A stretch of DNA of 64,000 nucleotides from an uncultured Eubacteriales bacterium (GTDB taxonomy: Bacteria; Acidobacteriota; Aminicenantia; Aminicenantales; Saccharicenantaceae): the NCBI GenBank assembly GCA_964523615.1, contig CAZFZU010000001.1:27063-91062 (forward strand), in the 5' to 3' direction. The notes beneath the pieces were generated by a model that did no database searches, had not been told where the DNA came from, and was given only the letters and a program-made list of their open reading frames with translations. How positions within the stretch are numbered: position 1 is the first letter of the stretch; each line of letters opens with the position of its first letter. Below, piece after piece: positions 11,960-28,669 of this stretch. The position numbers and the translations under genes are program-made.

Positions 11960-13882
11960 TCAGCGGGCCGGCAGCTTGATGATGAACTCCGTGCCCTCGC
12001 CGATACGGCTCTGGACGTCGATCTGCCCGCCGTGGCGCTGGATGGCGCCGTAGACCATCGGCAGGCCCAGGCCCGTCCCCTGCCCGCGGTCCTTGGTCGT
12101 GAAGAAGGGCTCGAAGATCTTGTTCAGGTTCTCCTCGCTGATGCCGACGCCCGTGTCGGCCACCCGGATGACGGCCATGCCCGTTCCCGGCTCGACCGAA
12201 GTGGCGATGGTCAGCCGGCCGCCCGAGGGCATGGCGTCGGCCGCGTTGACGGCCAGGTTGTTGATGACCCCCCGGATCTCGCCGGCGTCGACGTTGACGC
12301 GGGGCAGGTCCGGGGCCAGGTCCTTGACGATCTTGACGTTCTGGAAGGTGACGTGCTTCTCCAGGATGCGCAGGGCGTCCTCGATGAGGGCGTTGAGGTC
12401 GGCCGGGGCCCGCTCCGACTTGGTGTCGCGGGCGAAGTCCAGGATGCCCCGGACGATGCCCCGGCAGCGCAGGGTCTCGTCGCGGATGACCTTGAGGTCC
12501 TCCTCGTACGGCGTGCCCTTCATGTCCTCGAGCAGGAGCGAGCTGTAGGTCAGGACGCCGGTCAGGGGGTTGTTGATCTCGTGGGCGATGCCCGAGGCCA
12601 TCCGCCCGATCGAGGCCAGCTTCTCGGACTTCAGGATGGTCCGGTCGGCCAGGTCCGTCAGCTGTCGGTCGCGCTCCTGGATGGCGTCGACCATGCCGTT
12701 GAAGGCCCGGGCCAGCCGCCGGGCGTCCTCGTCGTCGTGGGGGTCGGTCTCGATGCGGTGGTAGAAGCCCAGGGCCATCTCGGTCGAGGCGTCGATGATG
12801 CGCTTGACCGGCTTGGTGTAGAGGGCGATGAGGTAGCCGGACAGGGCCAGGGCCAGGACGGTGGCCAGGAGGATGACCAGGAGGTAGGAGATGGTCGTGT
12901 TGCGGACGACGACGTCGAACTTCTTCTTCAGGACGCCGACGTAGAGCATGCCCAGGACCTTCTGGTCGAAGTCGTAGAGCGGCGTGTAGCCGGAGATGTA
13001 CCAGTCGTCGACGACGAAGGCCTTGCCGACCCAGGTCTCACCGCGCTCGAAGACCTTGCGGTAGACCTCCTCGGACACCTGGGTCCCGATGGCCCGCTTG
13101 CCCGTCGGGCCGAGGACGTTGGTGGCCACCCGGACGTCGCCGAGGAAGATCGTCGTCGTCCCGGCGTCCTTGCCGTTGATCCTCTCGTCCCGGAAGACGA
13201 GACGCTTGAAGCGGTCGACGAAGGCGTCGTTGTTGTTGAGCAGGATGGCGCCGTAGAGGATGCCGGCCAGGCGGTCGCCGTCGAGGATGGGCGCGGCGAT
13301 CTTGATGATCAGGGCCCGGTCCTCGGCCGGCCTCGGCCGGGGCCGGGCGTGCGAGGTCTCGACGACCGGGATGACCGTCCGCGAGGCCAGGTCGGCGCCT
13401 TCCCGGGCGATGTCCTCGTAGTCGAGCAGGCCCGTGCCGGCGATGGGGGCATGGGTCCGCAGGACCTCCTGGACGGTCCGGTAGCCGGTCATGCTGTCGC
13501 CGAAGGCCTCGAAGTTGTTGGCCCGGACGAGCATGGTGCCGTCGGCGTTGATGGCGTCGACGATGTCGAAGCCGAACTCGCGCTTGATCTGGACGAGCTT
13601 CTCGAACAAGAAGGCCCGGTCGCGGGCGGCCGTGGCCCGGACGATCTCGGGGGTCCGGGCCATGTACTGGATGGTCCGGGAGCGGTTGTCGATCTCCTCC
13701 CGGTAGAGCTCGCTCGTCGAGGCCAGGTTGGTCCCCACGGTGGCGTAGGCGTCGCGGACGAGGTTGGTGTTGAGCGCGCTCAGCCCGACGATGATCGACA
13801 GGACCCCGGCCAGCAGGACGATGGCCAGCAGGCTGACGACGAGCTTGAAACGGATGTTCGAGCGCGCGATGGACTTGATCAT
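11960..13882 (-). CDS. Sensor histidine kinase with extracytoplasmic Cache-like domain, HAMP, HisKA and HATPase
   Basis: 640 aa with two TM segments flanking a ~300-aa sensor domain. It has H-box [11 protein letters not shown]-box [12 protein letters not shown] and G-box GTGLGL. The start overlaps the upstream stop by 4 nt. Confidence 0.9.
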
Positions 13883-14283
13883 GACAGGGCCCGGGCGATC
13901 TTGGCCAGCAGCTCGTCGAGATCGACGGGCTTGGTCAGGAACTCGTTCCGCCCCGGCAGAAAGCTGTCGGACGGATCCATGGAGAAGCGCGAGTTCGTGA
14001 CCTGGTCGATGGCCGTCAGGATGACGATGGGGACGTCCCGGAAGGCCCTGTACTTCGAGGTCTCGCGTCGGCTGCGGATGGCGTCGGCGGCCTCGAAGCC
14101 GGCCGTGTCCGTCTCCATCATGACGTCCAGGACGACCAGGTCGGGCCGCTCGGCCAACAGGGCCTTGAGGCCTTCGGCGCCGCTGTGCGCGGCGGCGACG
14201 TCGTAGCCGTGGGCCTTGAGGACCTGGGCCAGGCTGGCCACGAGGTCCCGGTCGTCGTCGACGACGAGGATCTTTTTGCTCAT
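13879..14283 (-). CDS. Single-domain response regulator (CheY-like, with an insert)
   Basis: The protein begins MSKKILVVDDDRD, with ...DLVVLDVMME... and ...LTKPVD. The ATG at 14283 overlaps the hycG-like stop (ATGA). Confidence 0.85.
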   Translation of the reverse strand: MSKKILVVDDDRDLVASLAQVLKAHGYDVAAAHSGAEGLKALLAERPDLVVLDVMMETDTAGFEAADAIRSRRETSKYRAFRDVPIVILTAIDQVTNSRFSMDPSDSFLPGRNEFLTKPVDLDELLAKIARALS

Positions 14284-14810
14284 GTGTTCAGGACCTTGTA
14301 GATGACGTTGCGCTCTTCCCAGGCCTTGTTCCGCTCGTACATGTCGATGGGGAACTCGACCTGTTTGAGCTCGACCGGGGCGGCCTTTTTGTCGACCAGG
14401 CCGAGGGCCAGGGCGACGCCGTAGATGATGGCCTCCGGCCTCGGCGGGCAGCCGGGGATGTAGTAGTCGACCGGGACGGCCGTGGCCCCGCCGCCGGTGA
14501 CGTTGTAGGTGTCGAACCAGCAGCCGCCGCCGATGGCGCAGGAGCCGATGCCGAAGACGAGCTTGGGCGCGGGCATGGCCGCCCAGGCCTTCTTGACGAG
14601 CGGCAGGGTCGGCCGGGTCACGGCCCCGGACAGGAGCATGACGTCGGCGTGGCGCGGCGAGCCGACCAGCTTGATGCCGAACCGTTCGACGTCGTAGTAG
14701 GGCGTCAGGATGTTGAGGATCTCGATGTCGCAGCCGTTGCAGGCGCCGCTGTTGCAGTGGTAGACCCAGAGCGAGCGCGGGAAGCACGTCTTGGCCAGTT
14801 TGGCGAGCAT
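14280..14810 (-). CDS. hycG: Group-4 [NiFe]-hydrogenase small subunit (HycG/NuoB-like)
   Basis: CNSGACNGCDIE, GSCAIGGG and IPGCPPRPE are the NuoB/HycG [4Fe-4S] ligand blocks. Confidence 0.9.
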   Translation of the reverse strand: MLAKLAKTCFPRSLWVYHCNSGACNGCDIEILNILTPYYDVERFGIKLVGSPRHADVMLLSGAVTRPTLPLVKKAWAAMPAPKLVFGIGSCAIGGGCWFDTYNVTGGGATAVPVDYYIPGCPPRPEAIIYGVALALGLVDKKAAPVELKQVEFPIDMYERNKAWEERNVIYKVLNT

Positions 14811-14811
14811 G

Positions 14812-15357
14812 TCAGTCTCCTGTCCCGTCCGGTCGCTCGTAGCGCTCGGTCGGGCCGAGCTCCCGGGGCTCGAAGGTGTCGGTCGCCCGGCGCAGGACCG
14901 TGCGGGCCTCCAGGCTGTCGTAGCGGTAGCCGGTCAGGCCGAGCTTGTCGATGGCGCTGGCCGTCTCCATGTCGTAGCACCGGCCGCAGCGCTGGCAGGT
15001 CAGCATGAACAGCTCCAGCGTCTCCGTGATGTCGTTCCGCTCGTCCGTGGCCTGCTCGAAGCGGTCGGTCATGGCGATGGCCTTCTCCGGGCAGACGTCG
15101 GCGCAGCGGCCGCAGTAGGTGCAGCGCGAGCCGTCGTAGAGGAGGACGCGGATCTCCTGGCAGATGTCGCGGACCATGATGGTCCGGGCCGGGCAGTGGT
15201 TGGCGCAACCGCCGCAGCCGATGCACTTCGTATGGTCCCAGTGAGGGGCGCCGCGGAAGCCCTCCGGGGCCGGCCGGGGCTCGAAGGGGTACTTGAGGGT
15301 CACCACGCCGGGCTTGGCCGCCATCAGGACCTGCTTGATCTTGCTCGTCAGCCACAT
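14812..15357 (-). CDS. hycF: Hydrogenase 2x[4Fe-4S] ferredoxin subunit (HycF/NuoI-like)
   Basis: CIGCGGCANHCP and CTYCGRCADVCP are present, plus an additional CQRCGRC. At 181 aa it is close to E. coli HycF in size. Confidence 0.85.
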   Translation of the reverse strand: MWLTSKIKQVLMAAKPGVVTLKYPFEPRPAPEGFRGAPHWDHTKCIGCGGCANHCPARTIMVRDICQEIRVLLYDGSRCTYCGRCADVCPEKAIAMTDRFEQATDERNDITETLELFMLTCQRCGRCYDMETASAIDKLGLTGYRYDSLEARTVLRRATDTFEPRELGPTERYERPDGTGD

Positions 15358-15376: not shown

Positions 15377-16282
15377 CTAGATGCCGGCCACGGCCAGCCC
15401 GACCGCGCCGAGGGCGGCCAGGATGAGGACGGCGTAGATCTTGACGGCCTGGTCGATCCGCAGCCGCGGATTGGTCGAGCCGACCACGGCGATGAGGACG
15501 AAGACGGCCATCGTCCCCAGGAGCTGGGTCAGCAGGTCGCCGGCGTAGGCGCCCGTCCGCAGGAAGGGCAGGAAGACGGCCACGAACAGCCAGGCGTAGA
15601 ACATCTGCTTCATCATCATGTACCAGCGGAACAGGGCGTAGTCCGGCCCGCTGAACTCGATGAACGGGCCCTCGAGGACCTCGATCTCGGCCTCCGCGAT
15701 GTCGAAGGGCTGCTTGGACACGAAGGCCTGCAGGGCGGCCAGATAGGCGACGGCCATGACCGCGGTCGAGAGGCCGTAGCCGGCGGCCGAAGCGCCGAAG
15801 ACGGCCGCGCCCAGCCCCAGGCCGCCGGCGCGGGCGGCGCCGACGAGAAGGGTCATGGCCAGGACCGGTTCGACCATGATCATGGTCACCATCTCCCGGC
15901 TGGCCCCGATGGCGGCGAAGGTGTTGCGGCTGGCCAGGGCCCCGACCAGGACCGAGACCCCGCCGAGCGTCAGGAGATAGACGAGGGTGACGGCGTCGAC
16001 CCGAGCGCCCAGGGCGTTGACCTTGGAGCCGAGGGGGACGAGGGCGGCCACGGCCAGGATCGAGGCGAAGGCGGCCGGCGGGGCCAGGCGGAAGGCCCAG
16101 CTCCCGGCCGAGATGAGGCGCTGCTTGCCGAGCAGTTTGAGCAGGTCGAAGTAGGGCTGGACGACCGGCGGCCCCTTGCGGGTCTGGACCCGGGCCGTGA
16201 TCTTGCGCATCACGCCCTCGAAGAGCGGCGCCAGAAGCAGGAAGAGGAGGACGTTGACGAGGACGGCGACGACGCTCACGAT
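15377..16282 (-). CDS. hycD: Hydrogenase membrane subunit (HycD/NuoH-like)
   Basis: 301 aa starting at GTG 16282 behind GAGGAGGG. APLFEGVMRKITARVQTRKGPP is NuoH/HycD-like and the protein is polytopic. Confidence 0.85.
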   Translation of the reverse strand: MVSVVAVLVNVLLFLLLAPLFEGVMRKITARVQTRKGPPVVQPYFDLLKLLGKQRLISAGSWAFRLAPPAAFASILAVAALVPLGSKVNALGARVDAVTLVYLLTLGGVSVLVGALASRNTFAAIGASREMVTMIMVEPVLAMTLLVGAARAGGLGLGAAVFGASAAGYGLSTAVMAVAYLAALQAFVSKQPFDIAEAEIEVLEGPFIEFSGPDYALFRWYMMMKQMFYAWLFVAVFLPFLRTGAYAGDLLTQLLGTMAVFVLIAVVGSTNPRLRIDQAVKIYAVLILAALGAVGLAVAGI

Positions 16283-17964
16283 CCCTCCTCCCCGGCCCCG
16301 CGCCGCGACAGGCGCTCGAGCTCGGCCCGGCCCAGGACGCGTTTCGCGCCCGAGCGGGCGTCGACGACGGCCACCCGGTCCGTGCACGAGAAGCAGGGGT
16401 CGATCTGTCCCAGGATGATGGGGAAGTCGGCGAATTGGTTGTCGAGGAGCATGGCCGGCACGGCCTGCAGGTTCGGATAGGTCGGGGCCCGGACGCGCCA
16501 ACGCTCGGGCCGGTTCTCCTCGCCGGTGACGACGTAGTGGACGGACTCGCCGCGGGGCGCCTCGACCATGGACAGGCCGTGCCGCAGGGGCGGCAGGGCC
16601 TCGGGGACCACGGCCAGGAGCGGCCCGTCGTCGGGCAGGCCGGCCAGGGCCTGGCGCAGGATGGCGATGGACTCGAAGATCTCCAGGACCCGGACGACGA
16701 GCGTCCCCCAGACGTCGCCGCTGTCGGCGACGGGGACGTCGAAGGCCATGTCGGCGTAGGCCGCGTAGGGGTGGTCCTTGCGGCTGTCCATCTTCAGCCC
16801 GCGGGCCCGGGCCACGGGGCCGACCAGGCTCCAGCGCACGGCCTCCTCCCGCGACAGGTAGCCGACGCCCTTGGTCCGGCGGTGGATGGCGCCGTCGCCG
16901 ACGATGGCCTTCTTGAGCGTCATGACCTCCTTCTCCAAGCCGGCCAGGACGCTCTCGATGTCGGCCCGGACCTCGGGCCCGATGTCGCGCCGGACGCCGC
17001 CGATGAGGACCATGCCGTAGGTCTTGCGGTTGCCGGTGATGCGCTCCGAGAGCCACATGACCTTCTCCCGGACCCGCCAGGCCTGCATGAAGACCGTGTC
17101 GAAGCCGATGAGATGCCCGGCGATGCCCAGCCAGAGGAGGTGCGAGTGGAGGCGCTCGATCTCCAGCATGACCGTGCGGATGTACTCGGCCCGACGGGAG
17201 ATCCGGAGGCCGGCGGCGGCCTCGACGGCCTGGGCGTAGCAGACGGCGTGGACCGAGCCGCAGATGCCGCAGATGCGCTCGGCGACGAAGGGCACCTCGT
17301 TGTAGCTGACCTGCGTCTGGCAGAGCTTCTCGATGCCGCGGTGGGTCATGAAGCCGCGGTAGTCGCAGCCCTTGATGGTCTCGCCGTCGACGTAGACGGC
17401 GAAGTGTTCGGGCTCGTGGAGGCTGACGTGGAAGGGCCCGACGGGGACGATGGTCGTCCCGGGCGGGGCCTCGTCGAGCCGGTAGGCGACGTCCTCGGCC
17501 GCCGGCGGCTCGAGGTCGTGCGGGACCTCCTTGCGCAGAGGGTAGATCCCATCCGGCCAGTCGTCGGCCAGGATGAGCCGCTTGGGCTTGGGGTGGCCGG
17601 GGAACGACATCCCCAGGAGGTCCCGGTACTCGCGCTCGGACCAGCCGGCGCTCGGGATGTCCGGGGTGATGGATTCGAAGGACGGGTCGCCGGCCGGGGC
17701 CGAGGTCCGCAGGGCCACCGCGGCGTGGTCGGCGTCGAAGGCGAAGGTGTGGATGAGCCCCAGCGTGCCCTGGCGGGCGATCTCGTCGGTGCCGATGCCG
17801 ACCATGTAGCGGCCGCCGAGCCCGATCAGGGCTTGGGCCGCGGTCCGCAGGACGGCCCGGTCGACGTCGACGAAGAGACGGTCCGGGCGCGGCGACTCCG
17901 CGCCCCGGAAGCCGCCGCCGCAGCGGGCCTCGAGCTCGGTCCTGATCCTGGCGAGGGCGTCCAT
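16276..17964 (-). CDS. hycE: Group-4 [NiFe]-hydrogenase large subunit, NuoC-NuoD fusion (HycE-like)
   Basis: 562 aa. The N-terminal NuoC-like part contains WSEREYRDLLGMSFPGHP. Ni-Fe ligand motifs ERICGICGSVH and IDPCFSCTDR are present. A ~30-aa C-terminal extension after the second motif is a likely substrate for an endopeptidase. Confidence 0.92.
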   Translation of the reverse strand: MDALARIRTELEARCGGGFRGAESPRPDRLFVDVDRAVLRTAAQALIGLGGRYMVGIGTDEIARQGTLGLIHTFAFDADHAAVALRTSAPAGDPSFESITPDIPSAGWSEREYRDLLGMSFPGHPKPKRLILADDWPDGIYPLRKEVPHDLEPPAAEDVAYRLDEAPPGTTIVPVGPFHVSLHEPEHFAVYVDGETIKGCDYRGFMTHRGIEKLCQTQVSYNEVPFVAERICGICGSVHAVCYAQAVEAAAGLRISRRAEYIRTVMLEIERLHSHLLWLGIAGHLIGFDTVFMQAWRVREKVMWLSERITGNRKTYGMVLIGGVRRDIGPEVRADIESVLAGLEKEVMTLKKAIVGDGAIHRRTKGVGYLSREEAVRWSLVGPVARARGLKMDSRKDHPYAAYADMAFDVPVADSGDVWGTLVVRVLEIFESIAILRQALAGLPDDGPLLAVVPEALPPLRHGLSMVEAPRGESVHYVVTGEENRPERWRVRAPTYPNLQAVPAMLLDNQFADFPIILGQIDPCFSCTDRVAVVDARSGAKRVLGRAELERLSRRGAGEEGS

Positions 17965-17974: not shown

Positions 17975-19843
17975 CTACTTCCCGTTCCGGCCGCCGGCGG
18001 GCTTGAAGAGCGACCGCAGGCCGGCGAACATGCCCCGGTCCGCGTACCGGTTGGCTTCGTTGAGGTCCTGATAGCCGCAGAGCCAGGTCGGCGCGGCGGC
18101 GTCCTTGGAACCGCCCGACCGCCGCAGCAGGGCCCCCAGCCCCAGCCCGGCCGCGAGGAGGGCCAGGACGAGGAGCGGGACGGCGGCCGCGCCGAGGCCT
18201 TTCAGCCCGACTCCCAGAGCCGCGGCCGGCCCGAGGCCGCCCGGCGCGTTCAAGGCGTCGGCCAAGAGGAAGCCCTCGGAGCGCCGCAGCACGGCCAGGG
18301 CCAGGCCGACCGAGAGGACCGGGAAGAGCCCCTGGACGAGGGCCAGGAGGACCAGGGCGACCTGGGGGACGAGCATCGATCCCGGGACCTCGCGGATGGG
18401 CCTCGCGGCGTGGTGCTCGGCCCCCGACGAGGTGAAGGCCATGCCGAAGAACTTGACGTAGCAGGCCAGGGTCACCGCGCTCGTGAACAGGGCCACGACG
18501 CCGAAGACGACCAATAAGAAGGTCGCCTCCCCCGCCAGGACCGAGCTCGAGACGATGGCCCACTTGCTGGCGAAGCCGCTGAAGGGCGGCATGCCGGCGA
18601 TGGACAGCGAGGCCAGGCCGGCGACGACGGCGCTCACGGGCATCAGGCGGATGAGCCCGCCGAGCCGGTTGAGGTCGCTCGTCCCGGTGGCGTAGAGGAT
18701 GCCGCCGCCCGTGAGGAAGAGGGCCTCTTTGAACACGGCGTGGTTGAGGGCGTGGTAGAGGGCCCCGACGGCGGCGGCCGCGGCCAGGACGAGCAGGCGG
18801 GCCTGGAGGCCGGCATCGGCGGTCGCGGCGGAGAAACCGGCCAAGCCGAGAGCGGCCCCGAGCGCCAGGACGATGTAGCCGATTTGGCCGATGGAGCTGA
18901 AGGCCAGGAGGCGCTTGGCGTCGCTCTGGAGCATGGCTTGGACGGTGCCGATGAGCAGGGTCGCCGCTCCGACGGCGGCCACGATCAGGCCCCAGGTCCG
19001 GGCGGAGAAGGCCGGGTTGGCGAGCGGGGCCAGGAACAGGAAGACCCGCATCAGGCCGAAGATGCCGGTCTTGCTCATGGCCGAGCTGAGCAGGGCGCCG
19101 ACCGGGGAGGGGGCCGCGGCGTAGGCCCCCGGCAGCCAGAGCTGGCCGAGGGGGAAGACGCCGGCCTTGAGCCCGAAGCCGGCGAGCAGAAGCCCGAAGA
19201 ACAGGGCCAGGGCCGGCCCGCCCGCGCCGGCCAGACGGCCGCCGATCTCCGGCAGAGTCTCGCCGAAGCGGTAGCCGCCGACGGCGAAGGGGGCGGCCAC
19301 GGCCAGCAGCCAGGCCAGTTCCATGAAGATCAGGAAGTCCCGGGCGGCCCGGGCCGTCCCCGGCCGATCGCGGTCGAACCGGACCAGGGCGTAGGCCGGC
19401 AGGGTCATGACCTGCCAGGCCAGGGTGAAGCCCAGGGCCAGGTCGTCCACGACGAGGACGGCGGCCATGCCGAGCAGGAAGAGCGGGAAGCAGGCGTAAT
19501 AGCCGCGCAGGTCGCGCCCCGGGAAGCGGTCCATATAGCGGATCGAATAGAGGGCGCTGGCCAGGCCCATGACGGCGACGACGGCCAGGAAGATGGCGGC
19601 CAGGCCGTCGACGAGGAGCGGCACGGAGACGGGCCCGAGGGAGACGGTCCGCGCGGCGTGGCCGGCATGGCCGAACAGGGCCTCGTAGCCGACCGTGAGC
19701 AGCAGGGCCGACGAGACCGCGACCAGGACCAGGTTGACCGTCCCCGCGAGGGCGCGCCGGCGCCCGGCAGCGAGCGCCGCGACCGCCGCCGCGGCCAGGG
19801 CGCCGAAGGCGGCGAAGAGGCGGACGAAGAGGTCAGCGGTCAT
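17975..19843 (-). CDS. hycC: Antiporter-like membrane subunit (HycC/NuoL-M-N family)
   Basis: About 622 aa from ATG 19843 (MTADLF...). The protein is polytopic, and its FSSIGQIGYIVLALG and NHAVFKEALFL blocks are typical of NuoL/M/N and HycC. Confidence 0.85.
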   Translation of the reverse strand: MTADLFVRLFAAFGALAAAAVAALAAGRRRALAGTVNLVLVAVSSALLLTVGYEALFGHAGHAARTVSLGPVSVPLLVDGLAAIFLAVVAVMGLASALYSIRYMDRFPGRDLRGYYACFPLFLLGMAAVLVVDDLALGFTLAWQVMTLPAYALVRFDRDRPGTARAARDFLIFMELAWLLAVAAPFAVGGYRFGETLPEIGGRLAGAGGPALALFFGLLLAGFGLKAGVFPLGQLWLPGAYAAAPSPVGALLSSAMSKTGIFGLMRVFLFLAPLANPAFSARTWGLIVAAVGAATLLIGTVQAMLQSDAKRLLAFSSIGQIGYIVLALGAALGLAGFSAATADAGLQARLLVLAAAAAVGALYHALNHAVFKEALFLTGGGILYATGTSDLNRLGGLIRLMPVSAVVAGLASLSIAGMPPFSGFASKWAIVSSSVLAGEATFLLVVFGVVALFTSAVTLACYVKFFGMAFTSSGAEHHAARPIREVPGSMLVPQVALVLLALVQGLFPVLSVGLALAVLRRSEGFLLADALNAPGGLGPAAALGVGLKGLGAAAVPLLVLALLAAGLGLGALLRRSGGSKDAAAPTWLCGYQDLNEANRYADRGMFAGLRSLFKPAGGRNGK

Positions 19844-20339
19844 GGCGATCCTCCGGGCGGGCGGGGGCCAGGGCGCCCAGGACGGCATCGCGCACGCCGG
19901 CGGCGGCCCGGGCCACGGCGGGCGTCAGGCCCTCGCCGAAGTCCAGGTCGGCGGGCACGATGCCGAGGAGAAAGGCCTCTTTGCCGGCGGCCGCGAGATA
20001 CTTGCCGCTGAGCGAGAGGGCCATTTTGTGGGTCGAGAAGCTCTCGGCCTCGGCCAGGTCGGCCAGGCGGCCGAAGACGACGGTCCCGGGCTCGCCCTCG
20101 GCGGCCACGGCGTCGACGAAGACGACGTTCCGGGCGGCGCCGCGGGCGATGGCCGGGACGAAGTTCTCGGGCACGTCCTGGGCGTCGACGAGATCCAAGG
20201 CGGAGGCGGCCGCGGTCCCGCGCAGGGCGGCCACGATCCAGGGGCCGACGCCGTCGTCCCGGCGCAGGGGGTTGCCGACGCCGACGAGACAGGCCGGGCC
20301 GCGGAGGACGTCGGCCAGGCGGGGGGCGCCGTCCGTCAT
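19833..20339 (-). CDS. hycI: Hydrogenase maturation endopeptidase (HycI family)
   Basis: 168 aa with GVGNPLRRDDGVGPW, DAQDVPENF and STHKMAL. The ATG overlaps the upstream stop (ATGA). Confidence 0.85.
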   Translation of the reverse strand: MTDGAPRLADVLRGPACLVGVGNPLRRDDGVGPWIVAALRGTAAASALDLVDAQDVPENFVPAIARGAARNVVFVDAVAAEGEPGTVVFGRLADLAEAESFSTHKMALSLSGKYLAAAGKEAFLLGIVPADLDFGEGLTPAVARAAAGVRDAVLGALAPARPEDRHDR

Positions 20340-21178
20340 ATCTGCTCTCCCAGGGTCTTGATCTGCTTGTAGGTGTAGACCGGGCCGTCCGTGCAGACGA
20401 GGGTCCGGCCGATGGCGCAGTGCTGGCACTTGCCGATGCCGCACTTCATGTGCCTCTCGAGCGTGGAGACGATGGCCTCGTCCTTGAGCCCGGCCGCCAG
20501 GAGCTCCTTGATGACCGAGTTGAACATCAGCGGCGGGCCGCAGACGAAGGCGACGGTGTCCCGGACCGGCACCTGGGCCGGCTTGACGAGCGTGTGGACG
20601 AAGCCGACGGGGCCCGTCCAGCCCGGCTCGGGGCGGTCGATGGTGAAGTAGGTCTCGAAGCCCTCGGTGGCCTTCCATCGGTCGATCATGTCCCGGTACA
20701 TCAGCTCCTTGGAGGAGCGGGAGCCGTAGATGAGGATGATGCGGCCGAAGTCCCGCCGGTGCTGGAGGACATGGACGATGGACGAGCGCAGCGGGATGAG
20801 CCCGATGCCGCCGGCGACGTAGACGACGTTCTTGCCCTTGATGGCCTCGAAGGGGAAGCCGTTGCCGAAGGGGCCGCGGATGCCGATCTTGTCCCCGGCC
20901 CCGAGCTCGTGGAGGGCCCGGGTGACCTTGCCCACCCGGCGGACCGACAGGTGGGGCCGGTCGCCCTCGGGGCTGAACGGCAGGGACACGGCGAACTCGC
21001 CGGCGCCGAAGACCGTGCACATGACGAACTGGCCGGACCGGATGCGGAAGTCCCGGGCGGCCTCCGGCCGCTCGAACGAGAAGTAGAAGGTGCGGACGTC
21101 CTCGATCTCGTCCCGGACCTCGTCGATGACGGCGACCTCGGGGACGGTGACGATGGCGCCGGGGTTCTGAGCGCTCAT
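20336..21178 (-). CDS. FAD/NAD(P)-binding [2Fe-2S] oxidoreductase, sulfhydrogenase gamma (HydG) / AsrB / PyrK-like
   Basis: 280 aa with a ferredoxin-reductase-type fold. Motifs are GPFGNGF, VYVAGGIGLIPLRS and the C-terminal cluster motif MKCGIGKCQHCAIG...C. Confidence 0.8.
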   Translation of the reverse strand: MSAQNPGAIVTVPEVAVIDEVRDEIEDVRTFYFSFERPEAARDFRIRSGQFVMCTVFGAGEFAVSLPFSPEGDRPHLSVRRVGKVTRALHELGAGDKIGIRGPFGNGFPFEAIKGKNVVYVAGGIGLIPLRSSIVHVLQHRRDFGRIILIYGSRSSKELMYRDMIDRWKATEGFETYFTIDRPEPGWTGPVGFVHTLVKPAQVPVRDTVAFVCGPPLMFNSVIKELLAAGLKDEAIVSTLERHMKCGIGKCQHCAIGRTLVCTDGPVYTYKQIKTLGEQI

Positions 21179-22242
21179 TTCGCGCCTGCCTTGGTGATCT
21201 CGCGCCGGATGTAGGTGACGACGTTGGCGATGCCGATGTCGCCGGGGCAGACCCGGTTGCAGCGGCCGCAGCCGACGCAGCCGGGCCGGAGGTATTTCTT
21301 GGACTGGGAATAGGACAGCTTGCAGAAGAAGCGCTTGTTGCGGCGGTCCTCGACGGGCTTGCGGGGATTGTGGTCGCCGGCCATGCGGGTGTAGCCCTCG
21401 AAGGAGCAGGAGTCCCAGGACCGCGTCCGGTCGGTCCGGCCGCCGTCCGCGGCCAGGTCCTCGACGTTGAAGCAGGAGCAGGTCGGGCAGACGAACGAGC
21501 AGGCCCCGCACTCGAAGCACTGGTCGCCGATGTACTCCCAGACCTCGTTGGCGATGAAGCCCATGGTGATGCGGTTCATGACCCGCGAGATCCAGGCCTT
21601 GTTCTCGGTGGCCTCGGCGTCGAAGCGGGCGATGGAGGCGTCGACGGCGGCCTTCTTGACGGCCGCGGCGTCCGGGCCGGCCTCGGCCAATCCCAGGCGG
21701 CGGGCCAGGGCCTCGCCCTTCTCGCTGCCGGCCTCGTAGAGGTAGCGGTCGCCGACGGCGGTCAGGGCGGCGTCGTAGCCCTCCCGGGCGGCCGGGCCGC
21801 TGTCCGTGCAGACGCAGAAGCACTGGGGGAAGGGCCGGACGCAGGTGTTGGCCAGGACGAACATCTTCTTGCGGTGGTCGCGGTAGACCTCGTCGACGTA
21901 TTCCTGGCCGAGGAAGAAGCGGTCCAGGCAGAGGAGGCCGTTGAGGTCGCAGGCCCGGATGCCGACCAGGGCCTTGGGCCGGACGAGGTCCTCGCGGACG
22001 ACGGCGGCCTGGCGCGTCTCCCGGTCGTAGCGGTAGGATAGGATCCGCTCGGCCTGGGGGAAGACGGCGTGCTTGGGCGGGTTGTAGGTGATGGGGGCGT
22101 CGAGACGGATCACGGCCGGGTCCTCGACCCGCTCGAACATGGGGTCGCCGCCGTCGGCCCGGACGACGGGGCCGTAGAGGTCGTGGTCGGCGGCCAGAGC
22201 GGCCAGGAGCGCGGCGACCCGGTCTCGGGGCAGGATGTACAT
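21175..22242 (-). CDS. Poly-[4Fe-4S] protein, sulfhydrogenase beta (HydB) / AsrA-like
   Basis: 355 aa from ATG 22242. CFECGACSFVCPTCSCF and CVGCGRCNRVCP are present. The overall layout is that of the AsrA/HydB family. Confidence 0.75.
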   Translation of the reverse strand: MYILPRDRVAALLAALAADHDLYGPVVRADGGDPMFERVEDPAVIRLDAPITYNPPKHAVFPQAERILSYRYDRETRQAAVVREDLVRPKALVGIRACDLNGLLCLDRFFLGQEYVDEVYRDHRKKMFVLANTCVRPFPQCFCVCTDSGPAAREGYDAALTAVGDRYLYEAGSEKGEALARRLGLAEAGPDAAAVKKAAVDASIARFDAEATENKAWISRVMNRITMGFIANEVWEYIGDQCFECGACSFVCPTCSCFNVEDLAADGGRTDRTRSWDSCSFEGYTRMAGDHNPRKPVEDRRNKRFFCKLSYSQSKKYLRPGCVGCGRCNRVCPGDIGIANVVTYIRREITKAGAK

Positions 22243-22244: not shown

Positions 22245-24203
22245 TCACACCTTCTCGATCCGCACGGGGATGGCCGATTCCTGGTCCTCGTCGATGGAGG
22301 TCCCGGCGGCGTTGAGGAAGCCCGGCACCATGTCCTCGATGAAGTACGGGACGTGGACGGTCCCGGGCCGGACGTCCTCGGAGACGCGGACGGCGACCCG
22401 CATCGAGCCGCCGGCGGCGACGACGTCGACGGGGGCGCGGTCGCGGAGGCCAAGCCGCTTGGCGTCGGAGGCCTCGACCTCGACGAAGCCCCGCGGGTAC
22501 AGGAGGAGCAGGGCGTTGTACTCCCGCTTGGGGATCTGGGTCTTCTTCATGATGTTGTTGCGGTGCCAGAAGTAGTTGGCCTTGCCGGCCATGAGCAGGA
22601 AGGGGAACTCGTCCGAGGCGGCCGGCACGGAGAAGTCGGCGCCGGGGGCGACGAAACGGAGGAGGCGGCCGGCGGAAGCGGCGTCGTAGCGGAGCGTGCC
22701 TTCCGGGCGGGCGGCGTCGACGGGCCACTGCAGGCCGTGGCCTTTCTCGAGCCCGGCGTAGGTGACGCCGGCGTAGGCCGGAACGGCCGCGGCGATCTCG
22801 GCCATGACGCCCTCGGCCGAGTCGACCGCCCAGCCGGCGCCGAGCTTGGCGGCCAGGTCGGCGTAGACGCGCCAGGCCGGGCGGACGCCGGCCGGGGGCT
22901 CGACCTTCTTGCGGTTGAGCTGGATGCGCCGCTCGGCGTTGGTGTAGGTCCCGTCGGTCTCCGCGGACGAGGCGGCCGGCAGGACGACGTGGGCGAACTC
23001 GGCGAAGGGGTTGGCGAAGGCGCCGATGTAGACGAGGCAGTCGAGGGCGCCGAGCTTGGCGGCGTGGCGGACGATCTCCTCGTCACGGTCGGCCACGACC
23101 AGGGCCTTGAGCGGCGTGGGCTCGGCCGCCAGCAGCTCGCGCGGCGTCCGGCCGGCCGCCGGGCCCTCGGCCCGGCGGTGGCCGGCGAGGAAGCGGTTCG
23201 AGGCGCCCACGTCCGTCCCTCCGAGGAGGTTGCAGATGCCCGTGACGGGGTTGACGCCGCAGCCCTCCCGGCCGACCTTGCCGGCGGCCAGGAAGAGGTC
23301 GAAGAGCAGGGCCGTGGAGGCCCGGTCGAGGCCGGCGATCCCGGAGGTGAAGAAGGCCATGGCCGTCGACGCCTGGGCCAGCCGCCGGGCCAGGTCCTCG
23401 ATCGTCGCGGGCTCGAGCCCGGCGGCCCCGGCCAGGGCGGCCAGGTCGAGGACGGCCAGGGAGCGGGCGAAATCGTCGAAGCCCTCGGTCCGCTCGCGGA
23501 CGAAGGCCTCGTCGTGCCAGCCGCGCTCGACGAGGACCTTGGCCAGGGCGGCCAGGACGTGCCGCAGGGTCCCCGGGCGGAGCCAGAGGTGGCGGCCGCT
23601 GAGCCGGGCGATCTGGGTCGAGCGCGCGCTCAGGGTGACGAGCTCGGACCCGCCCCGGGCGGCCCGGTGGATCTCGCTGCCGACGATGGGATTGAGCTTG
23701 GCGATGTCGGCCCCGGCGACCAGGATGAAGCCGGCCTTCCGGATCTCGGTCAGGCCGCCGGACATGGCCGGCCAGCCCGTGCCCTCGAGGAGGACGTCGG
23801 CGGCCTCGCCGTGCCCCTGGTCGGAGGCCAGGGCGATGTGGGGCGTGCGGAAGACCGAGCGGGCCAGCTGGGCCATGAGGAAGTTGTCCTCGTTGGAGGC
23901 CCGCGGCGAGGCCAGGAAGGCGATCTCGTCGCCGGAGTAGCGGCCCAGCCGGTCCGCGGCGTAGGTCAAAGCCTCATCGTAGGGGACCGTCTGGAGGCGG
24001 CCGTCGCGCCGGACGGCCGGCGAGACGATCCGGTCCCGCGTCGCCAGGAGCTCGTGGATGTGCCAGCCGCGGACGCAGAGACGTCCCCGGCTGACGGGGT
24101 GGCCGGGGGCGGCGAAAACGCCGCGGACGGCGCCGTCCCGGACGTCGAGCAGATGGCCGCAGCCGGTGCCGCAGAAGTTGCAGACCCCCGAGTGAGTGCT
24201 CAT
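22245..24203 (-). CDS. Molybdopterin-oxidoreductase family protein, FdhH-like (formate dehydrogenase alpha-like) with non-canonical active-site residues
   Basis: 652 aa. The N-terminal [4Fe-4S] motif is CNFCGTGCG...C. Blocks collinear with FdhH include RTEGFDDF, GVNPVTG and HVPYF. The ORF is uninterrupted, so there is no in-frame TGA and no selenocysteine. Confidence 0.8.
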   Translation of the reverse strand: MSTHSGVCNFCGTGCGHLLDVRDGAVRGVFAAPGHPVSRGRLCVRGWHIHELLATRDRIVSPAVRRDGRLQTVPYDEALTYAADRLGRYSGDEIAFLASPRASNEDNFLMAQLARSVFRTPHIALASDQGHGEAADVLLEGTGWPAMSGGLTEIRKAGFILVAGADIAKLNPIVGSEIHRAARGGSELVTLSARSTQIARLSGRHLWLRPGTLRHVLAALAKVLVERGWHDEAFVRERTEGFDDFARSLAVLDLAALAGAAGLEPATIEDLARRLAQASTAMAFFTSGIAGLDRASTALLFDLFLAAGKVGREGCGVNPVTGICNLLGGTDVGASNRFLAGHRRAEGPAAGRTPRELLAAEPTPLKALVVADRDEEIVRHAAKLGALDCLVYIGAFANPFAEFAHVVLPAASSAETDGTYTNAERRIQLNRKKVEPPAGVRPAWRVYADLAAKLGAGWAVDSAEGVMAEIAAAVPAYAGVTYAGLEKGHGLQWPVDAARPEGTLRYDAASAGRLLRFVAPGADFSVPAASDEFPFLLMAGKANYFWHRNNIMKKTQIPKREYNALLLLYPRGFVEVEASDAKRLGLRDRAPVDVVAAGGSMRVAVRVSEDVRPGTVHVPYFIEDMVPGFLNAAGTSIDEDQESAIPVRIEKV

Positions 24204-24381: not shown

Positions 24382-24879
24382 CTAAAGTAAAGGTCCCCGG
24401 AGCTTCAGGCCGATGACGTACATAATATTGTAAAGATTGGAGATACCGCCGACGAAACGCTCCTTGACCAGGCCCTTGGGGATGTCGTCGATGACGGCCT
24501 TGAGGCCGTCGAGAGCGGCCTTGAGAGCCTCGTGGTCGGCCTGCAGGGCGGCGCGGCCGTCCGAGGCCGCGAGGGCCTCGGAGGACGGGCCGACCCGGGA
24601 GACGTCGTCGAACATCGCCCGGTAGGCCTCGCGCCGGGAGCGGGGCACGGCCAGGACGGCTTTCTCGATGAGGGCGGCCCGGGTCACGGCGTAGCCGATG
24701 AGGACCTCGGCGGCGTTGCGGTCCTGAGCCCGGTCGGGGTAGCGCTCGAAGTAGGCCTCGCCGAGGGCGATCATGTCGGCGCTTTCGAGCGGGAAGGCGC
24801 CGTCGAGGGCCCGGACGGCGCCGCGGAAGGCGCCGGCGTCGGGCTCGCGGCGGAAGAGATCGGCCAGGGAGACGGTCAT
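24382..24879 (-). CDS. Hypothetical protein (predicted all-alpha, 165 aa)
   Basis: The ORF has native codon bias and lies in the co-directional array. I recognise no motif. Confidence 0.55.
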   Translation of the reverse strand: MTVSLADLFRREPDAGAFRGAVRALDGAFPLESADMIALGEAYFERYPDRAQDRNAAEVLIGYAVTRAALIEKAVLAVPRSRREAYRAMFDDVSRVGPSSEALAASDGRAALQADHEALKAALDGLKAVIDDIPKGLVKERFVGGISNLYNIMYVIGLKLRGPLL

Positions 24880-24928: not shown

Positions 24929-25306
24929 CTACTTGGCCTTGGCGTACCGGCCGATGACGGCCAGCAGCAGGTCGAAGTTGACGGGTTTCTGGAAGACGCC
25001 GCTGAAGCCGAACTCGGCCAGGCCGACGGTGGCCGCCGTGGCGTCGCCGATCGTGCTCAGCAGGAACACGGGCGTCCCGGGCCGCTCCGTCTTCATGATC
25101 TTGGTCACCTGGCCGCCCGAATCGATGTCCTCCATCATCATGTCGCAGAGGACGATGTCGGGGTTCGTCTTCCGGAAGGCCTCGAGGCCCTCCTTGCCGC
25201 TGAGGGCGGTGGCGGCCTCGAAGCCGCTGGCGTCGAGGATGGCCTTGACGGATTCGACGATGGCCGGGTCGTCGTCGATGATGAGCACCTTTTTCTTATC
25301 GCTCAT
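24929..25306 (-). CDS. Single-domain response regulator (CheY-like)
   Basis: The protein begins MSDKKKVLIIDDDP, with ...DIVLCDMMME... and ...FQKPV. It is 125 aa. Confidence 0.85.
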   Translation of the reverse strand: MSDKKKVLIIDDDPAIVESVKAILDASGFEAATALSGKEGLEAFRKTNPDIVLCDMMMEDIDSGGQVTKIMKTERPGTPVFLLSTIGDATAATVGLAEFGFSGVFQKPVNFDLLLAVIGRYAKAK

Positions 25307-25379: not shown

Positions 25380-27749
25380 CTAGAGCTCCTGGTGCTCGGT
25401 CCGGTGGATGATCTCGTTCTGGAGCTCGGTCGAGCAGTCGACGAAGTAGTCGCTGTAGCCGGCCACGCGGACGATGAGGTCGCGGTACTTCTCGGGCTGG
25501 GCCTGGGCCGTCCGCAGGAGGTCGGCCGTGACGACGTTGAACTGGATGTGGTGGCCCATGAGCCGGAAGTAGCCGCGGACGAGGTCCTTGAGCCCGTTGA
25601 GCCCGGCCTCCCCGGCCAGGAGCTGGGGGGTGAACTTCTGGTTGAGGAGGGTGCCGCCCGTCCGGACGTGGTCCATCTTGCCGAGCGACTTGACGACCGC
25701 CGTCGGGCCTTTGCGGTCGGCGCCCTGGACGGGCGAGACGCCCTCGGACACGGCGTCGCCGGCCCGGCGGCCGTCGGCCGTAGCTCCGGTCATCTTGCCG
25801 AAGTAGATGTGGGCCGTGGTCGGCAGGAGGTTGATGCGGTAGGTGCCGCCCCGCGGCGTCGGCCGGCCGTCGACGGCCTCGAAGTAGGCCTCGAAGACCC
25901 GGGTCATCAGGGAGTCGGCGTAGTCGTCGTCGTTCCCGAACTTGGGCGTCCGGTTGAGGACGCGCTGGCGGAGGGCCGCGTGGCCCTCGAAATCGGCCGC
26001 CAGGGCCGCCCGCAGCTCGGCCATACTGAAATGCCCGTGGTCGTAGACGTTGTAGCGGATGGCGCTGAGGGTGTCGGTGATCGTGCCGACGCCGACGCCC
26101 TGGATGTAGTTCGTGTTGTAGCGGGCCCCGCCGGCGTGGTAGTCCCGGCCGGTCTTGACGCAGTCGTCGACCAGGACCGACAGGAAGGGGGCCGGCAGGT
26201 ACTTGGCGTAGAGGGCCTCGATGACGTTGGAGCCGCGGACCTTGATGTCGACGAAGTGCCGGATCTGCTTCCGGAAGGCCTCGAAGAGCTCGTCGAAGGA
26301 GGAGAACGCGTCCGGATCGCCGGTCTCGAGGCCGATGCGCTTGCCCGTCCGCGGGTCGACGCCGTTATGGAGAGCGATCTCGAAGACCTTGGGAAGGTTG
26401 AAGTAGCCGGTCAGGATGTAGGCCTCCTTGCCGAAGGCCCCGGCCTCGACGCAGCCGCTGGCCCCGCCGTTGCGGGCATCGACCACGGACTTGCCCTGGC
26501 GGACGAGCTCCTGGACGATGGCGTCGGTGTTGAAGATCGAGGGCTGGCCGAAGCCGGTCTTGACGATCTTGAGGGCCCGGAGCAGGAACGCGTCCGGCCC
26601 CTTGGCGCTGATCTGGACCATCGAGCTGGGCTGGAGGATGCGCATCTCCTCGATGACGTCGAGGATGAGGAACGACAGCTCGTTGACGCCGTCCGTGCCG
26701 TCCTCCTTGAGGCCGCCGACGTTGATGAGGGCGAAATCCGTATAGGTACCGCTCTCCTCGGCCGTGACGCCGACCTTGGGAGGCGCGGGCTGGTTGTTGA
26801 ACTTGACCCAGAAGGCCTGCAGGAGCTCGCGGGCCGACTCCTTGGTCAGGCTGCCGTCGGCCAGGCCCCGCTGGTAGAACGGCCAGAGGTGCTGGTCGAG
26901 CCGGCCCGGGTTGAAGGAGTCCCAGGTGTTGTACTCGGTGATGACGCCCAGGTGGACGAACCAGTACATCTGGAGGGCCTCCCAGAAGTCGCGGGGGGCC
27001 TCGGCGGGCACGCGGTCGCAGACCGCGGCGATCCGCTCGAGCTCGGCCCGGCGGGCCGGGTCCTGCTCCCCCGCCGCCAGCTCGCGGGCCTTGGCGGCGT
27101 GGCGCCGGCCGAAGGCGATCAGGGCGTCGCAGCTCGCGGACATGGCCTTGAGCTCCTCCTGCCTGTCGTAGGCGGCGGGGTCGGCCATGAAGTCGAGGGC
27201 GGCCAGGGCGGCTTCGATGTCCTTCTTGAAGCCGTTCATCCCTTTCCGGTAGATCTTGCCGTCGAGGACGGTGTGGCCCGGGGCCCGCTGCTCCATGAAC
27301 TCGGTGAAGACGCCGGCTTCGTAGGCGTCGAGCCATTCGCGGGTCATCTCGGCGAAGATCCGTTCCCGCTGGGAGCGGCCCTGCCAGAACGGGATGATCT
27401 CCTCGGCGTAGACGCGACGGGTCTCGGCGTCGGAGGCGAAGGCCGTCTTCTTGCGGTCGTCGAGGTACTGGAGGTCCTGCAGGGAATGGACGCAGACCTC
27501 GGGGTAGGTCGGCGTGGCCTTGGGGGCCGGGCCGCGCTCGCCGACGATGAGCTCGCCGTCGTTGAAGACGACGGTCTTCCCTTCCATGATGTGCTTGAAG
27601 GCCAGGGCCCGTTGCATCGGCGTCGACAAACCGGCCGTCGCGGGACGCTTGTAGAACTCGGTTAGGAGCCGGGCCCGTTCGGCGCTGATCGTCGGCTTGG
27701 CCTCGAGCGTCTGCGTCCTCAGCTTCTTGATGCGGTCGTTCATGGTCAT
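25380..27749 (-). CDS. Glycyl radical enzyme, PFL2 / glycerol-dehydratase-like (eliminase) clade
   Basis: About 789 aa. The C-terminal glycyl-radical motif is DLIVRVAGYSDYF. The thiyl loop is GASGCVEAG (Cys-x-Glu, not the Cys-Cys of pyruvate formate-lyase). An alternative start at 27743 has better spacing to GGAGG. Confidence 0.9.
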   Translation of the reverse strand: MTMNDRIKKLRTQTLEAKPTISAERARLLTEFYKRPATAGLSTPMQRALAFKHIMEGKTVVFNDGELIVGERGPAPKATPTYPEVCVHSLQDLQYLDDRKKTAFASDAETRRVYAEEIIPFWQGRSQRERIFAEMTREWLDAYEAGVFTEFMEQRAPGHTVLDGKIYRKGMNGFKKDIEAALAALDFMADPAAYDRQEELKAMSASCDALIAFGRRHAAKARELAAGEQDPARRAELERIAAVCDRVPAEAPRDFWEALQMYWFVHLGVITEYNTWDSFNPGRLDQHLWPFYQRGLADGSLTKESARELLQAFWVKFNNQPAPPKVGVTAEESGTYTDFALINVGGLKEDGTDGVNELSFLILDVIEEMRILQPSSMVQISAKGPDAFLLRALKIVKTGFGQPSIFNTDAIVQELVRQGKSVVDARNGGASGCVEAGAFGKEAYILTGYFNLPKVFEIALHNGVDPRTGKRIGLETGDPDAFSSFDELFEAFRKQIRHFVDIKVRGSNVIEALYAKYLPAPFLSVLVDDCVKTGRDYHAGGARYNTNYIQGVGVGTITDTLSAIRYNVYDHGHFSMAELRAALAADFEGHAALRQRVLNRTPKFGNDDDYADSLMTRVFEAYFEAVDGRPTPRGGTYRINLLPTTAHIYFGKMTGATADGRRAGDAVSEGVSPVQGADRKGPTAVVKSLGKMDHVRTGGTLLNQKFTPQLLAGEAGLNGLKDLVRGYFRLMGHHIQFNVVTADLLRTAQAQPEKYRDLIVRVAGYSDYFVDCSTELQNEIIHRTEHQEL

Positions 27750-28669
27750 CCTCCGATGCGGACATCGAAACCGGCCTCCCGGAAGGCCGCGGCGACGGCC
27801 GCCACGCGCTCCTCCCCGGGGGCCTCGAAGGCCCGGAAATCCCGTTCCCGGCCGATCCGGCGGGCCTTCTCCATGCCGCCGGCGTGATAGGGCAGCAGCC
27901 CGACCCGCTCGACCTTCCCCAGCGACCTGAGGAAGTCGATCGTGCGCCGGACGTTGCCGTCGTCGTCGTTGACGCCGGGGACCAGCGGAACGCGGACCCA
28001 GACCTCTGTCCTGCGCGCGACGAGCCGGCTGAGGTTCTCGAGGAGGGGCCCGTTCGGGGCGCCCGTCGTCTCGCGGTGCCGGGCGTCGTCCATGACCTTG
28101 AGGTCGTAGAGGACGAGGTCGGCTCTCGCGGCCAGCCGGTCGAGGACGCCGGGGGCGGCCATCCCCGCCGTATCGATGGCCGTCCGCAGGCCGCGGGCCC
28201 GGCAGGCGTCGAGGACGGCCTCGGCGAAATCCGATTGGACGAAGGGATCTCCGCCCGAAAGGGTCACGCCGCCGCCCGACTGCTCGTAGAAGATACGGTC
28301 CCTCTCGACCTCGGCCACGACCTCGTCGACGGTCATCTCCCGGCCGACGATCTGCATGGCGTCGTAGAGACAGGCCTCGGCGCACTTGCCACAGGCGTCG
28401 CATTTGGCCCGGTCGACGGAAACGGCCCCGTCGCCGTTCTTAGCGATGGCCCCGGGGGGACAGGCGGCGACGCAGGCGTAGCAGCGGCGGCAGCGGGCCG
28501 GCCAATGCATGAGCTCGGGCCCGGGATCGACGCTTTCGGGATTGTGGCACCACAGGCAGCGCAGGGCGCAGCCTTTGAGGAAGACGGTCGTCCGGATGCC
28601 CGGTCCGTCGTGGATCGAGTAGCGCTTGATGTCGAAAACGCGTCCCTTCAAGTCGCTCACTTTTTTCAA
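27746..28669 (-). CDS. Glycyl-radical enzyme activating enzyme (radical SAM with ferredoxin-like insert)
   Basis: CALRCLWCHNPE is the CxxxCxxC motif. Extra clusters are CRRCYACVAACP and CDACGKCAEAC. The GGGVTLSGGDP SAM motif is present. Confidence 0.9.
   Translation of the reverse strand: MKKVSDLKGRVFDIKRYSIHDGPGIRTTVFLKGCALRCLWCHNPESVDPGPELMHWPARCRRCYACVAACPPGAIAKNGDGAVSVDRAKCDACGKCAEACLYDAMQIVGREMTVDEVVAEVERDRIFYEQSGGGVTLSGGDPFVQSDFAEAVLDACRARGLRTAIDTAGMAAPGVLDRLAARADLVLYDLKVMDDARHRETTGAPNGPLLENLSRLVARRTEVWVRVPLVPGVNDDDGNVRRTIDFLRSLGKVERVGLLPYHAGGMEKARRIGRERDFRAFEAPGEERVAAVAAAFREAGFDVRIGG

Follow-up and report, generated by a model that had tools for sequence, protein, structure and literature searches.

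The window analysed here, a 64,000-nucleotide stretch of contig CAZFZU010000001.1 from an uncultured bacterium of the Aminicenantales with a G+C content of about 70%, carries on its minus strand an operon for a membrane-bound [NiFe] hydrogenase of group 4 that opens with a gene for a formate dehydrogenase (FDH)-like subunit (22245-24203, 652 amino acids). This protein has the MopB four-domain fold and one [4Fe-4S] site, without a Mo ligand, and the loss of both the ligand and the catalytic arginine of the FDHs is a trait of its entire family, not a product of chance. The original prediction had considered the label of formate hydrogenlyase (FHL) unsafe for this operon, and so it is: the catalytic residues are lost, HycB is missing and an NAD(P)H-type module is present. 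On balance, we think that the FDH-like protein is a remnant free of molybdenum cofactor that retains one [4Fe-4S] cluster and acts as a scaffold or wire within a group-4 hydrogenase that is linked to NAD(P)H and coupled to ion movement, with a beta-like and a gamma-like subunit replacing formate and the FdhF-HycB pair. It would be the descendant of a cytoplasmic FDH of the FdhH/FdhA type. Its losses would comprise the ligand to Mo/W and the catalytic Arg, the Lys through which the cluster is wired to the pterin, and the residues that bind both nucleotides of molybdopterin guanine dinucleotide (MGD).

The former active site of the FDH-like subunit

The three Pfam domains of the open reading frame (ORF), Molybdop_Fe4S4, Molybdopterin and Molydop_binding, are those of a molybdopterin oxidoreductase, and its G+C content at third codon positions (GC3) of 0.97 is the same as in the neighbouring genes. 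The top NCBIfam match is TIGR01591 (Fdh-alpha), with 370.7 bits under a cutoff of 666.25, while the NuoG model TIGR01973 reaches 120.7 bits against a cutoff of 470. In a phmmer search of the entire PDB the nearest sequences were those of an F420-dependent FDH (9t1s_L, 2.5e-87) and of E. coli FdhH (1aa6_A, 1.2e-60), with NuoG matching at about 4.7e-13 only. An AlphaFold2 model of the protein (pLDDT 90.7, pTM 0.92) yielded Foldseek TMq values of 0.86-0.90 to FdhH, MeFDH1, RcFDH and Nap (1fdi 0.86, 7z0t_A 0.88), and according to this model the FdhH-type fold is fully retained.

An ungapped alignment by eye to FdhH had suggested that a glycine replaces Sec140 with the following histidine kept, that a threonine replaces Arg333, that the N-terminal [4Fe-4S] motif is intact and that the reading frame holds no TGA. 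As evidenced by three independent alignments, made with phmmer, MAFFT and hhalign, this alignment was correct. In the phmmer alignment to 9t1s_L, 'sdqGHge' pairs with 'arlXHsa', where X is selenocysteine (Sec), and 'gvnpvTgicnllg' lies opposite 'gvnplRgqnnvqg'. MAFFT, run with the E. coli controls fdhF, nuoG, napA, fdnG, dmsA, torA and bisC from NC_000913, places Gly130 and His131 (codons 23811-23816, this and the following on the minus strand) at Sec140 and His141 of FdhF, Thr321 (23241-23243) at Arg333 and Arg45 (24069-24071) at Lys44. The cysteines of the iron-sulfur motif, Cys8, Cys11 and Cys15 (C8-x2-C11-x3-C15, 24159-24182) and Cys43 (24075-24077), pair with Cys8, Cys11, Cys15 and Cys42. 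Aligning the family profile to 18 bona fide FDHs with hhalign (Prob 100, E 4e-144) left the residue pairing unchanged: neither Cys nor Sec, Ser or Asp falls on the ligand position, and the catalytic position lacks an Arg. The ligand column of the alignment also holds the known Ser of DmsA, TorA and BisC and the known Cys of NapA, which validates it, and a shift of the alignment is thus ruled out. A hidden selenocysteine is likewise excluded, since the 652-residue translation contains neither an internal stop nor an in-frame TGA. Metal-dependent FDHs are defined by a Sec or Cys ligand to Mo or W (PMC13397495). Here Gly130 stands at the ligand position, and of the second-sphere pair of His and Arg only His131 is found, the Arg having become Thr321.

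These substitutions are observed across the family. A word-indexed search returned more than 400 relatives, and the 120 that were listed, with 96% to 45% identity, come from metagenome-assembled genomes (MAGs) of Acidobacteriota, Aminicenantes and Spirochaetes. In the family alignment of 121 sequences the ligand column holds Gly in 115, Trp in three, Arg in two and Phe in one, and never Cys, Sec, Ser or Asp; the Arg333 column holds Thr (87), Ala (27), Pro (5) or Val (2), with Arg in none. Lys44 is replaced by Arg in 121 of 121, and the four cluster cysteines occur in every sequence that includes the N-terminus. The retention of the histidine, correct for this ORF, does not extend to the family as a whole, where its column is His in 105 sequences, Gln in eight, Tyr in seven and Glu in one, with Arg in the distant operon-mate P0129. 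Overall the family alignment has a mean column identity of 61% and 67 invariant columns. When 1.84 billion cluster representatives were searched with HMMER the family ended near 456 bits, and below about 340 bits bona fide FDHs (K/C/H/R at FdhH positions 44/140/141/333) were found mixed with many other FDH-like proteins that lack the Cys. With one genome scanned for each GTDB species, the gene turned up in 187 species, all of them uncultured Aminicenantes/Acidobacteriota or Spirochaetota and Ca. Saccharicenans among them.

Note that a large fraction of the cytoplasmic FDH-like cluster representatives P0129-P0269 is without both the Cys ligand and the Arg, and that this set includes many proteins of about 900 amino acids with a NuoG-type N-terminal fusion, for example with K/S/H/L, K/N/W/L or R/N/L/L at the four positions. 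Arg in place of Lys44 is common in the Cys-less representatives and rare in the bona fide ones.

The hydrogenase operon and its electron input

The operon is tightly packed, in the order FDH-like, SHI-beta-like, SHI-gamma-like, HycI, HyfB, HycE, HycD, HycF and HycG, with all genes on the minus strand. The 355-residue protein encoded after the FDH-like subunit (21175-22242) is a poly-iron-sulfur (FeS) subunit related to SHI-beta and AsrA (PF17179, Fer4_22). It matches P. furiosus SHI 9nez_B at 3.7e-40 with its Cys clusters aligned, and matches NF040833 (sulfhyd_HydB, 3e-43) and TIGR02910 (AsrA), both under their cutoffs. The next, of 280 residues (20336-21178), resembles SHI-gamma, AsrB and PyrK, has predicted sites for FAD, NAD(P)H and a [2Fe-2S] cluster (PF00175, NAD_binding_1; PF00970, FAD_binding_6; PF10418, DHODB_Fe-S_bind) and aligns to 9nez_C at 1.3e-52, including the GGxGxxP nucleotide motif and the CGIGKCxHC...C motif of the [2Fe-2S] cluster. 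By full-length homology and the conservation of FAD, NAD(P)H and FeS motifs, the pair forms a putative NAD(P)H:FeS module of the SHI-beta/gamma or AsrA/AsrB type. All NCBIfam scores of the window against the SHI and AsrAB equivalogs stay below cutoff, and the module is joined to a membrane group-4 hydrogenase, where that of the named systems belongs to a sulfite reductase or to a soluble hydrogenase of group 3b.

The remaining genes encode a HycI-type maturation protease (19833-20339; PF01750, TIGR00072 above cutoff), an antiporter-type membrane subunit of the HyfB/HycC/NuoL kind (17975-19843; PF00361 and PF00662, NF005086 hydrogenase 4 subunit B at 6e-97), a HycE-like [NiFe] large subunit that is a NuoC-NuoD fusion (16276-17964; HycE 7z0s_E at 3.3e-124), a HycD/NuoH-like membrane subunit (15377-16279; PF00146), a HycF/NuoI-like subunit with two [4Fe-4S] clusters (14812-15357; NF009053, FHL iron-sulfur subunit, 8.6e-31) and a HycG/NuoB-like small subunit (14280-14810; PF01058, NF005012 above cutoff). 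Both Ni motifs of the large subunit, RICGICGSVH and DPCFSCTDR, are intact, and its C-terminal extension fits the presence of HycI. A single-domain CheY-like response regulator (13879-14283) closes the operon and is conserved, like the sensor histidine kinase at 11960-13882, in nearly all loci. As orthologues of the kinase elsewhere carry Cache_3-Cache_2 sensor domains, this conserved pair suggests a ligand-sensed control of the hydrogenase.

The same gene order was observed in Spirochaetes, Aminicenantes and other Acidobacteriota, in essentially all of the 80 loci seeded from the FDH-like gene that had sufficient flank. A search seeded from the beta-like gene found the FDH-like gene directly upstream in 65 of 72 new loci; of the other seven, four lack the space for it, two represent split high-scoring segment pairs of a complete gene, and the last (L100) carries a shortened version. 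Taken from both seeds, synteny extends over about 150 loci, and no gene for a HycB-type ferredoxin was found in the operon, with the spacing in these loci leaving no space for one.

The operon thus shares with E. coli FHL (FdhF-HycBCDEFG; 7Z0S/7Z0T) the complete group 4a core, that is, a HycE-type subunit with both Ni motifs together with HycG, HycF, HycD, a HycC-like subunit and HycI, as well as the FdhF fold and its [4Fe-4S] cluster. It differs in an FDH-like subunit without Sec or Cys, Arg333, Lys44 and the MGD-binding residues, in the absence of HycB and in the inserted genes for the beta/gamma NAD(P)H module, so that a competent FdhF and a HycB linking it to HycF are both missing.

From this arrangement we infer an electron path, with NAD(P)H as the substrate and ion movement coupled to it. 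The FDH-like protein would have a structural role or serve as an electron wire among the eight subunits of a membrane group-4 [NiFe] hydrogenase with a HycCDEFG-type core, in which an NAD(P)H:FeS module homologous to SHI beta/gamma and AsrAB has taken over electron input from formate/FdhF and HycB. Electrons would pass from NAD(P)H to FAD and the [2Fe-2S] cluster of the gamma-like subunit, then to the [4Fe-4S] clusters of the beta-like subunit, with the cluster of the FDH-like protein on or beside the path at this stage, and from there via HycF and HycG to the [NiFe] site in HycE. The HycD- and HyfB-like subunits would couple the reaction to a movement of ions, and the direction of the reaction, evolution of H2 or reduction of NAD(P)+, would be set by H2 pressure and membrane potential.

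Fate of the cofactor site and competing readings

Several points weigh against a remnant devoid of cofactor. Arsenite oxidase is a bis-MGD enzyme without a protein ligand, so that a missing ligand alone proves nothing, and it appears among the fold matches of our model. Evolving H2 with electrons of NAD(P)H is endergonic under standard conditions. Of 100 columns with at least 85% conservation among 59 bona fide FDHs the ORF keeps 61, a count that does not discriminate, as the cofactor-containing NapA keeps 66 and DmsA 40. The former pocket moreover contains invariant family-specific residues (D166, N171, D372, Y392, F400, W546 and H547) that could reflect a new ligand site and not packing. The absence of the cofactor is itself what we infer from the residues, and the positions of FdhH that were tested are presumed MGD contacts; a published list of FdhH-MGD contacts was found neither in the FHL cryo-EM paper nor in the 2026 Chem Rev review. 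Finally, an in silico survey of the group 4 [NiFe(Se)] hydrogenases (Front Microbiol, 3 September 2026; PMC13582414) reads the FDH-like end of a third relay branch as the site of a third substrate in a bifurcating or confurcating enzyme.

The total count of conserved columns was dropped as a test of cofactor loss, and we therefore relied on residues common to all cofactor-containing controls, that is, to the bis-MGD enzymes of E. coli, counted as seven (those named are FdhH, FdnG, NapA, DmsA, TorA and BisC). The ORF has L, G, A and G in place of N/D223, D429, D478 and N662, which all, or nearly all, of the seven share; the equivalents of 223, 478 and 662 vary within the family, and that of 429 (Gly394) is conserved. 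Positions common to FdhH, NapA and FdnG have also changed (K44 to R, N176 to D, H181 to N, T579 to A and R581 to K), the D202-P203 of the DPR motif in FdhH and FdnG has become S-A, and the C-terminal K679 motif is absent. The 30 FDH-conserved columns that differ here vary within the family nearly as much as ordinary ones do, with a mean entropy of 1.27, versus 1.56 for the latter (p = 0.087) and 0.32 for the FDH columns that were retained, and the equivalents of D478, T579, R581, N662 and D202 each show four to six different residues. At the same time small residues of the pocket were replaced by invariant bulky or charged ones (V427 by Y392, T435 by F400, G402 by D372), which fits a filled cavity, though these residues may instead belong to a new site. 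The question whether MGD-binding residues are retained, left open by the original prediction, is thus answered in the negative as far as the alignment tells: the residues that bind the MGD nucleotides appear to be lost. Genes of the moa/mob/moe group, fdhD or hyp genes were not found within the 64-kb window, a scale at which this is uninformative.

The fate proposed here has precedents. The C-terminal domain of NuoG/Nqo3 is a cofactor-less MopB-like domain with one [4Fe-4S] site (N7), and at FdhH positions 44/140/141/333 E. coli NuoG reads R/A/H/A, with D176, S478 and P662, where the ORF reads R/G/H/T, with D176; the motifs at 579-581 and 679 are absent from both. Unlike NuoG, the ORF has no N-terminal HydA-like domain with [2Fe-2S] and [4Fe-4S] clusters, its MopB [4Fe-4S] motif starting at residue 8, and the NAD(P)H module at its side is of the FNR/PyrK type, whereas the partner of NuoG is NuoEF. 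As the ORF is far closer in sequence to the FDHs than to NuoG, we take the resemblance to be parallel decay and not common descent. Matches were also obtained to QrcB (NF041783, 'molybdopterin-binding-like', 1e-21) and to StnC (PDB 8OH5, 8oh5_C at 3.7e-23), whose FdhF-like domain is reported to be catalytically inactive and to mediate assembly (PMC10482914). StnC belongs to a soluble bifurcating transhydrogenase and QrcB to a periplasmic quinone reductase, and both differ from the window protein in their complexes and domain fusions. Of the two readings originally offered, a degenerate, NuoG-like electron-transfer or scaffold subunit is favoured by the loss and variability of the shared polar residues, the missing K679, the NuoG parallel and the NAD(P)H module; the other, in which a Mo/W enzyme would use a different ligand and substrate, is disfavoured.

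The essential observation has already been published, computationally only. According to the survey, about half of the Fdh subunits in one subclade of group 4b are without the Cys/Sec ligand, their clusters co-occur with homologues of SHI-gamma as well as of SHI-beta, and in AlphaFold models the FeS relay branches to the large subunit, to SHI-gamma and to the FDH-like protein (PMC13582414). All the defining components of this class, an Fdh homologue without Cys/Sec, adjoining SHI-beta/gamma genes and a group-4 large subunit, are present in the window. In the typical cluster these are accompanied by a HyfE-like subunit and by multiple antiporter subunits and ferredoxins, whereas in the operon of the window only one antiporter-like subunit is encoded, a HyfE-like gene is missing and there is no additional ferredoxin. 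Its only membrane genes are the HyfB-like and the HycD-like one, and its large subunit is nearest to E. coli HycE. The locus is an additional member, possibly a minimal variant, of a class known in silico only.

Where the survey would place a third substrate, in the FDH-like protein, our residue analysis points to an empty relic. That the subunit is a working site for a third substrate or a non-canonical cofactor, within a three-way bifurcating or confurcating membrane hydrogenase, seems to us rather unlikely. The branched relay that ends at the FDH-like protein in the published model (PMC13582414) speaks for it, as do the strong purifying selection on a protein of 650 amino acids in which many family-specific residues, part of them in the former pocket, are invariant, and the His131 kept in 105 of 121 sequences. 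Yet the MGD-holding residues of all cofactor-containing controls are lost, with most of these positions variable, and neither a flavin nor another known bifurcating centre is predicted for the subunit. While ligand-less bis-MGD enzymes do exist in the form of arsenite oxidase, NuoG and StnC are examples of such domains that persist without catalysis. Further, the residues at positions 140/141/333 differ between subclades that share the operon (G/H/T, W/Y/V, F/Y/V, G/Q/T and Y/R/T), and this variation of the former active site under a constant operon argues against catalysis there. An enzyme in which the site has been rebuilt for a third substrate or redox partner, so that a membrane-bound, ion-translocating [NiFe] hydrogenase bifurcates or confurcates among H2, NAD(P)H and this partner, is unlikely as well; to our knowledge no characterised enzyme combines such a hydrogenase with bifurcation of this kind.

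The invariance of the four cysteines and of Arg45 implies that the cluster matters, and with a position near the surface it might serve as the docking and entry site of ferredoxin or flavodoxin, so that NAD(P)H and reduced ferredoxin are combined to make H2. The hosts are fermentative anaerobes by the titles of their MAGs, and confurcation would presumably ease the energetics from NADH to H2. We nevertheless consider this quite improbable: a conserved ferredoxin gene is missing from the operon, and a membrane-coupled complex can already drive an uphill reaction.

That the protein is a genuine FDH in a true FHL, the loss of Sec/Cys and Arg being an alignment shift, is hardly credible in spite of the JGI label 'formate dehydrogenase major subunit' on several of the listed homologues, the FDHs as best PDB and fold matches and the HycE-like core, as three independent alignments agree and recover the Ser/Cys ligands of the controls in the ligand column, TIGR01591 stays far under its cutoff, no in-frame TGA and no HycB are present and the neighbouring glycyl-radical enzyme is a hydroxyproline dehydratase and not a pyruvate formate-lyase. 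Equally implausible is a decaying pseudogene without functional protein, as the shortened L100 gene might suggest, given intact full-length ORFs in about 187 species of two phyla, the column conservation of the family, a confident AlphaFold2 model and the GC3 of 0.97.

Variant loci, neighbouring genes and significance

Loci more distant from the window retain the operon with a different former active site. P0125 (L093, 40% identity, G/H/A) and P0129 (L092, 34%, Y/R/T) show the identical nine-gene order, and P0138 (L096, 34%, Q/R/A) is followed by the beta-like and the gamma-like gene, then by HycI and a pair of antiporter-like genes before the contig ends, resembling the richer multi-antiporter form of the published survey. 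The TET motif is kept in P0129 and P0138, and the DPR motif and R581 are kept in P0129, all of them lost from the clade of the window; by these motifs, the distant operon-mates display a gradient of decay of the MGD-type signature. A neighbour-joining tree groups the degenerate proteins linked to the hydrogenase; it is a rough tree with a risk of long-branch effects, from which independent losses cannot be counted.

In L096, hypA and hypB lie upstream of P0138. In L100, a locus of an Aminicenantes MAG, the FDH-like gene (8844-9998, plus strand) comprises only the C-terminal 341 residues, without the FeS domain; it adjoins an intact beta-like gene downstream and is preceded by an ORF of 721 amino acids without a Pfam match. 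The fragment may reflect a fault of the assembly, or else the N-terminal half may have been lost naturally. In L005 (14362-17043, on a 3.2-Mb contig of GCA_041304185.1) the operon stops inside the HyfB-like gene, whose product is called as 893 amino acids with a match to Ribosomal_L28, and unrelated genes follow; the break is probably a misassembly or a rearrangement in that MAG.

Directly upstream of the FDH-like gene in the window lies a conserved ORF of 165 amino acids (24382-24879, minus strand), for which no relatives were found in Pfam, NCBIfam or the PDB, and upstream of it a single-domain response regulator (24929-25306, minus strand; PF00072). The pair occurs at about -600 and -1000 bp in all loci of the Aminicenantes type and farther off in Spirochaetota, and it may be regulatory. 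Farther upstream are encoded a glycyl-radical enzyme (25380-27749, minus strand) and its activase (27746-28669, minus strand; NF043069, 356 bits, below the cutoff of 425). Although similar to pyruvate formate-lyase, the enzyme was rejected as such, since it matches trans-4-hydroxy-L-proline dehydratase (NF043068, 1282 bits over a cutoff of 1100), and there is thus no local formate source. A glycyl-radical enzyme is found at -3.5 to -5.3 kb in the closest relatives of the Aminicenantes type, an adjacency that is absent in Spirochaetota. Farther away, at 52587-54695 on the minus strand, a 2-hydroxyacyl-CoA dehydratase D-component (PF06050) adjoins an activator ATPase of the BcrAD/BadFG type (PF01869), which fits an anaerobe that ferments amino acids. 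The literature on group 4f/Ehf, on an FHL of Aminicenantes and on Saccharicenans yielded nothing specific.

Sediments and digesters commonly harbour the Aminicenantes/Acidobacteriota and Spirochaetota that carry this operon. Where an Fdh stands beside a Hyc-type hydrogenase, automated pipelines as well as some metagenome studies assume a formate hydrogenlyase, and for about 187 species of these lineages the production of H2 from formate deduced in this way is probably an error; a link of the operon's H2 with the pool of NAD(P)H is more likely. If our reading is true, the operon represents a second, independent case of the route that is thought to have produced complex I, in which a membrane hydrogenase core holds on to a dead molybdoenzyme domain as a scaffold and acquires an NAD(P)H dehydrogenase module, which in this case is of the FNR/PyrK type and not NuoEF. 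An ion-coupled NAD(P)H:H2 oxidoreductase of this kind would then provide fermenters with a route to NADH-dependent H2 besides the confurcating [FeFe] hydrogenases.

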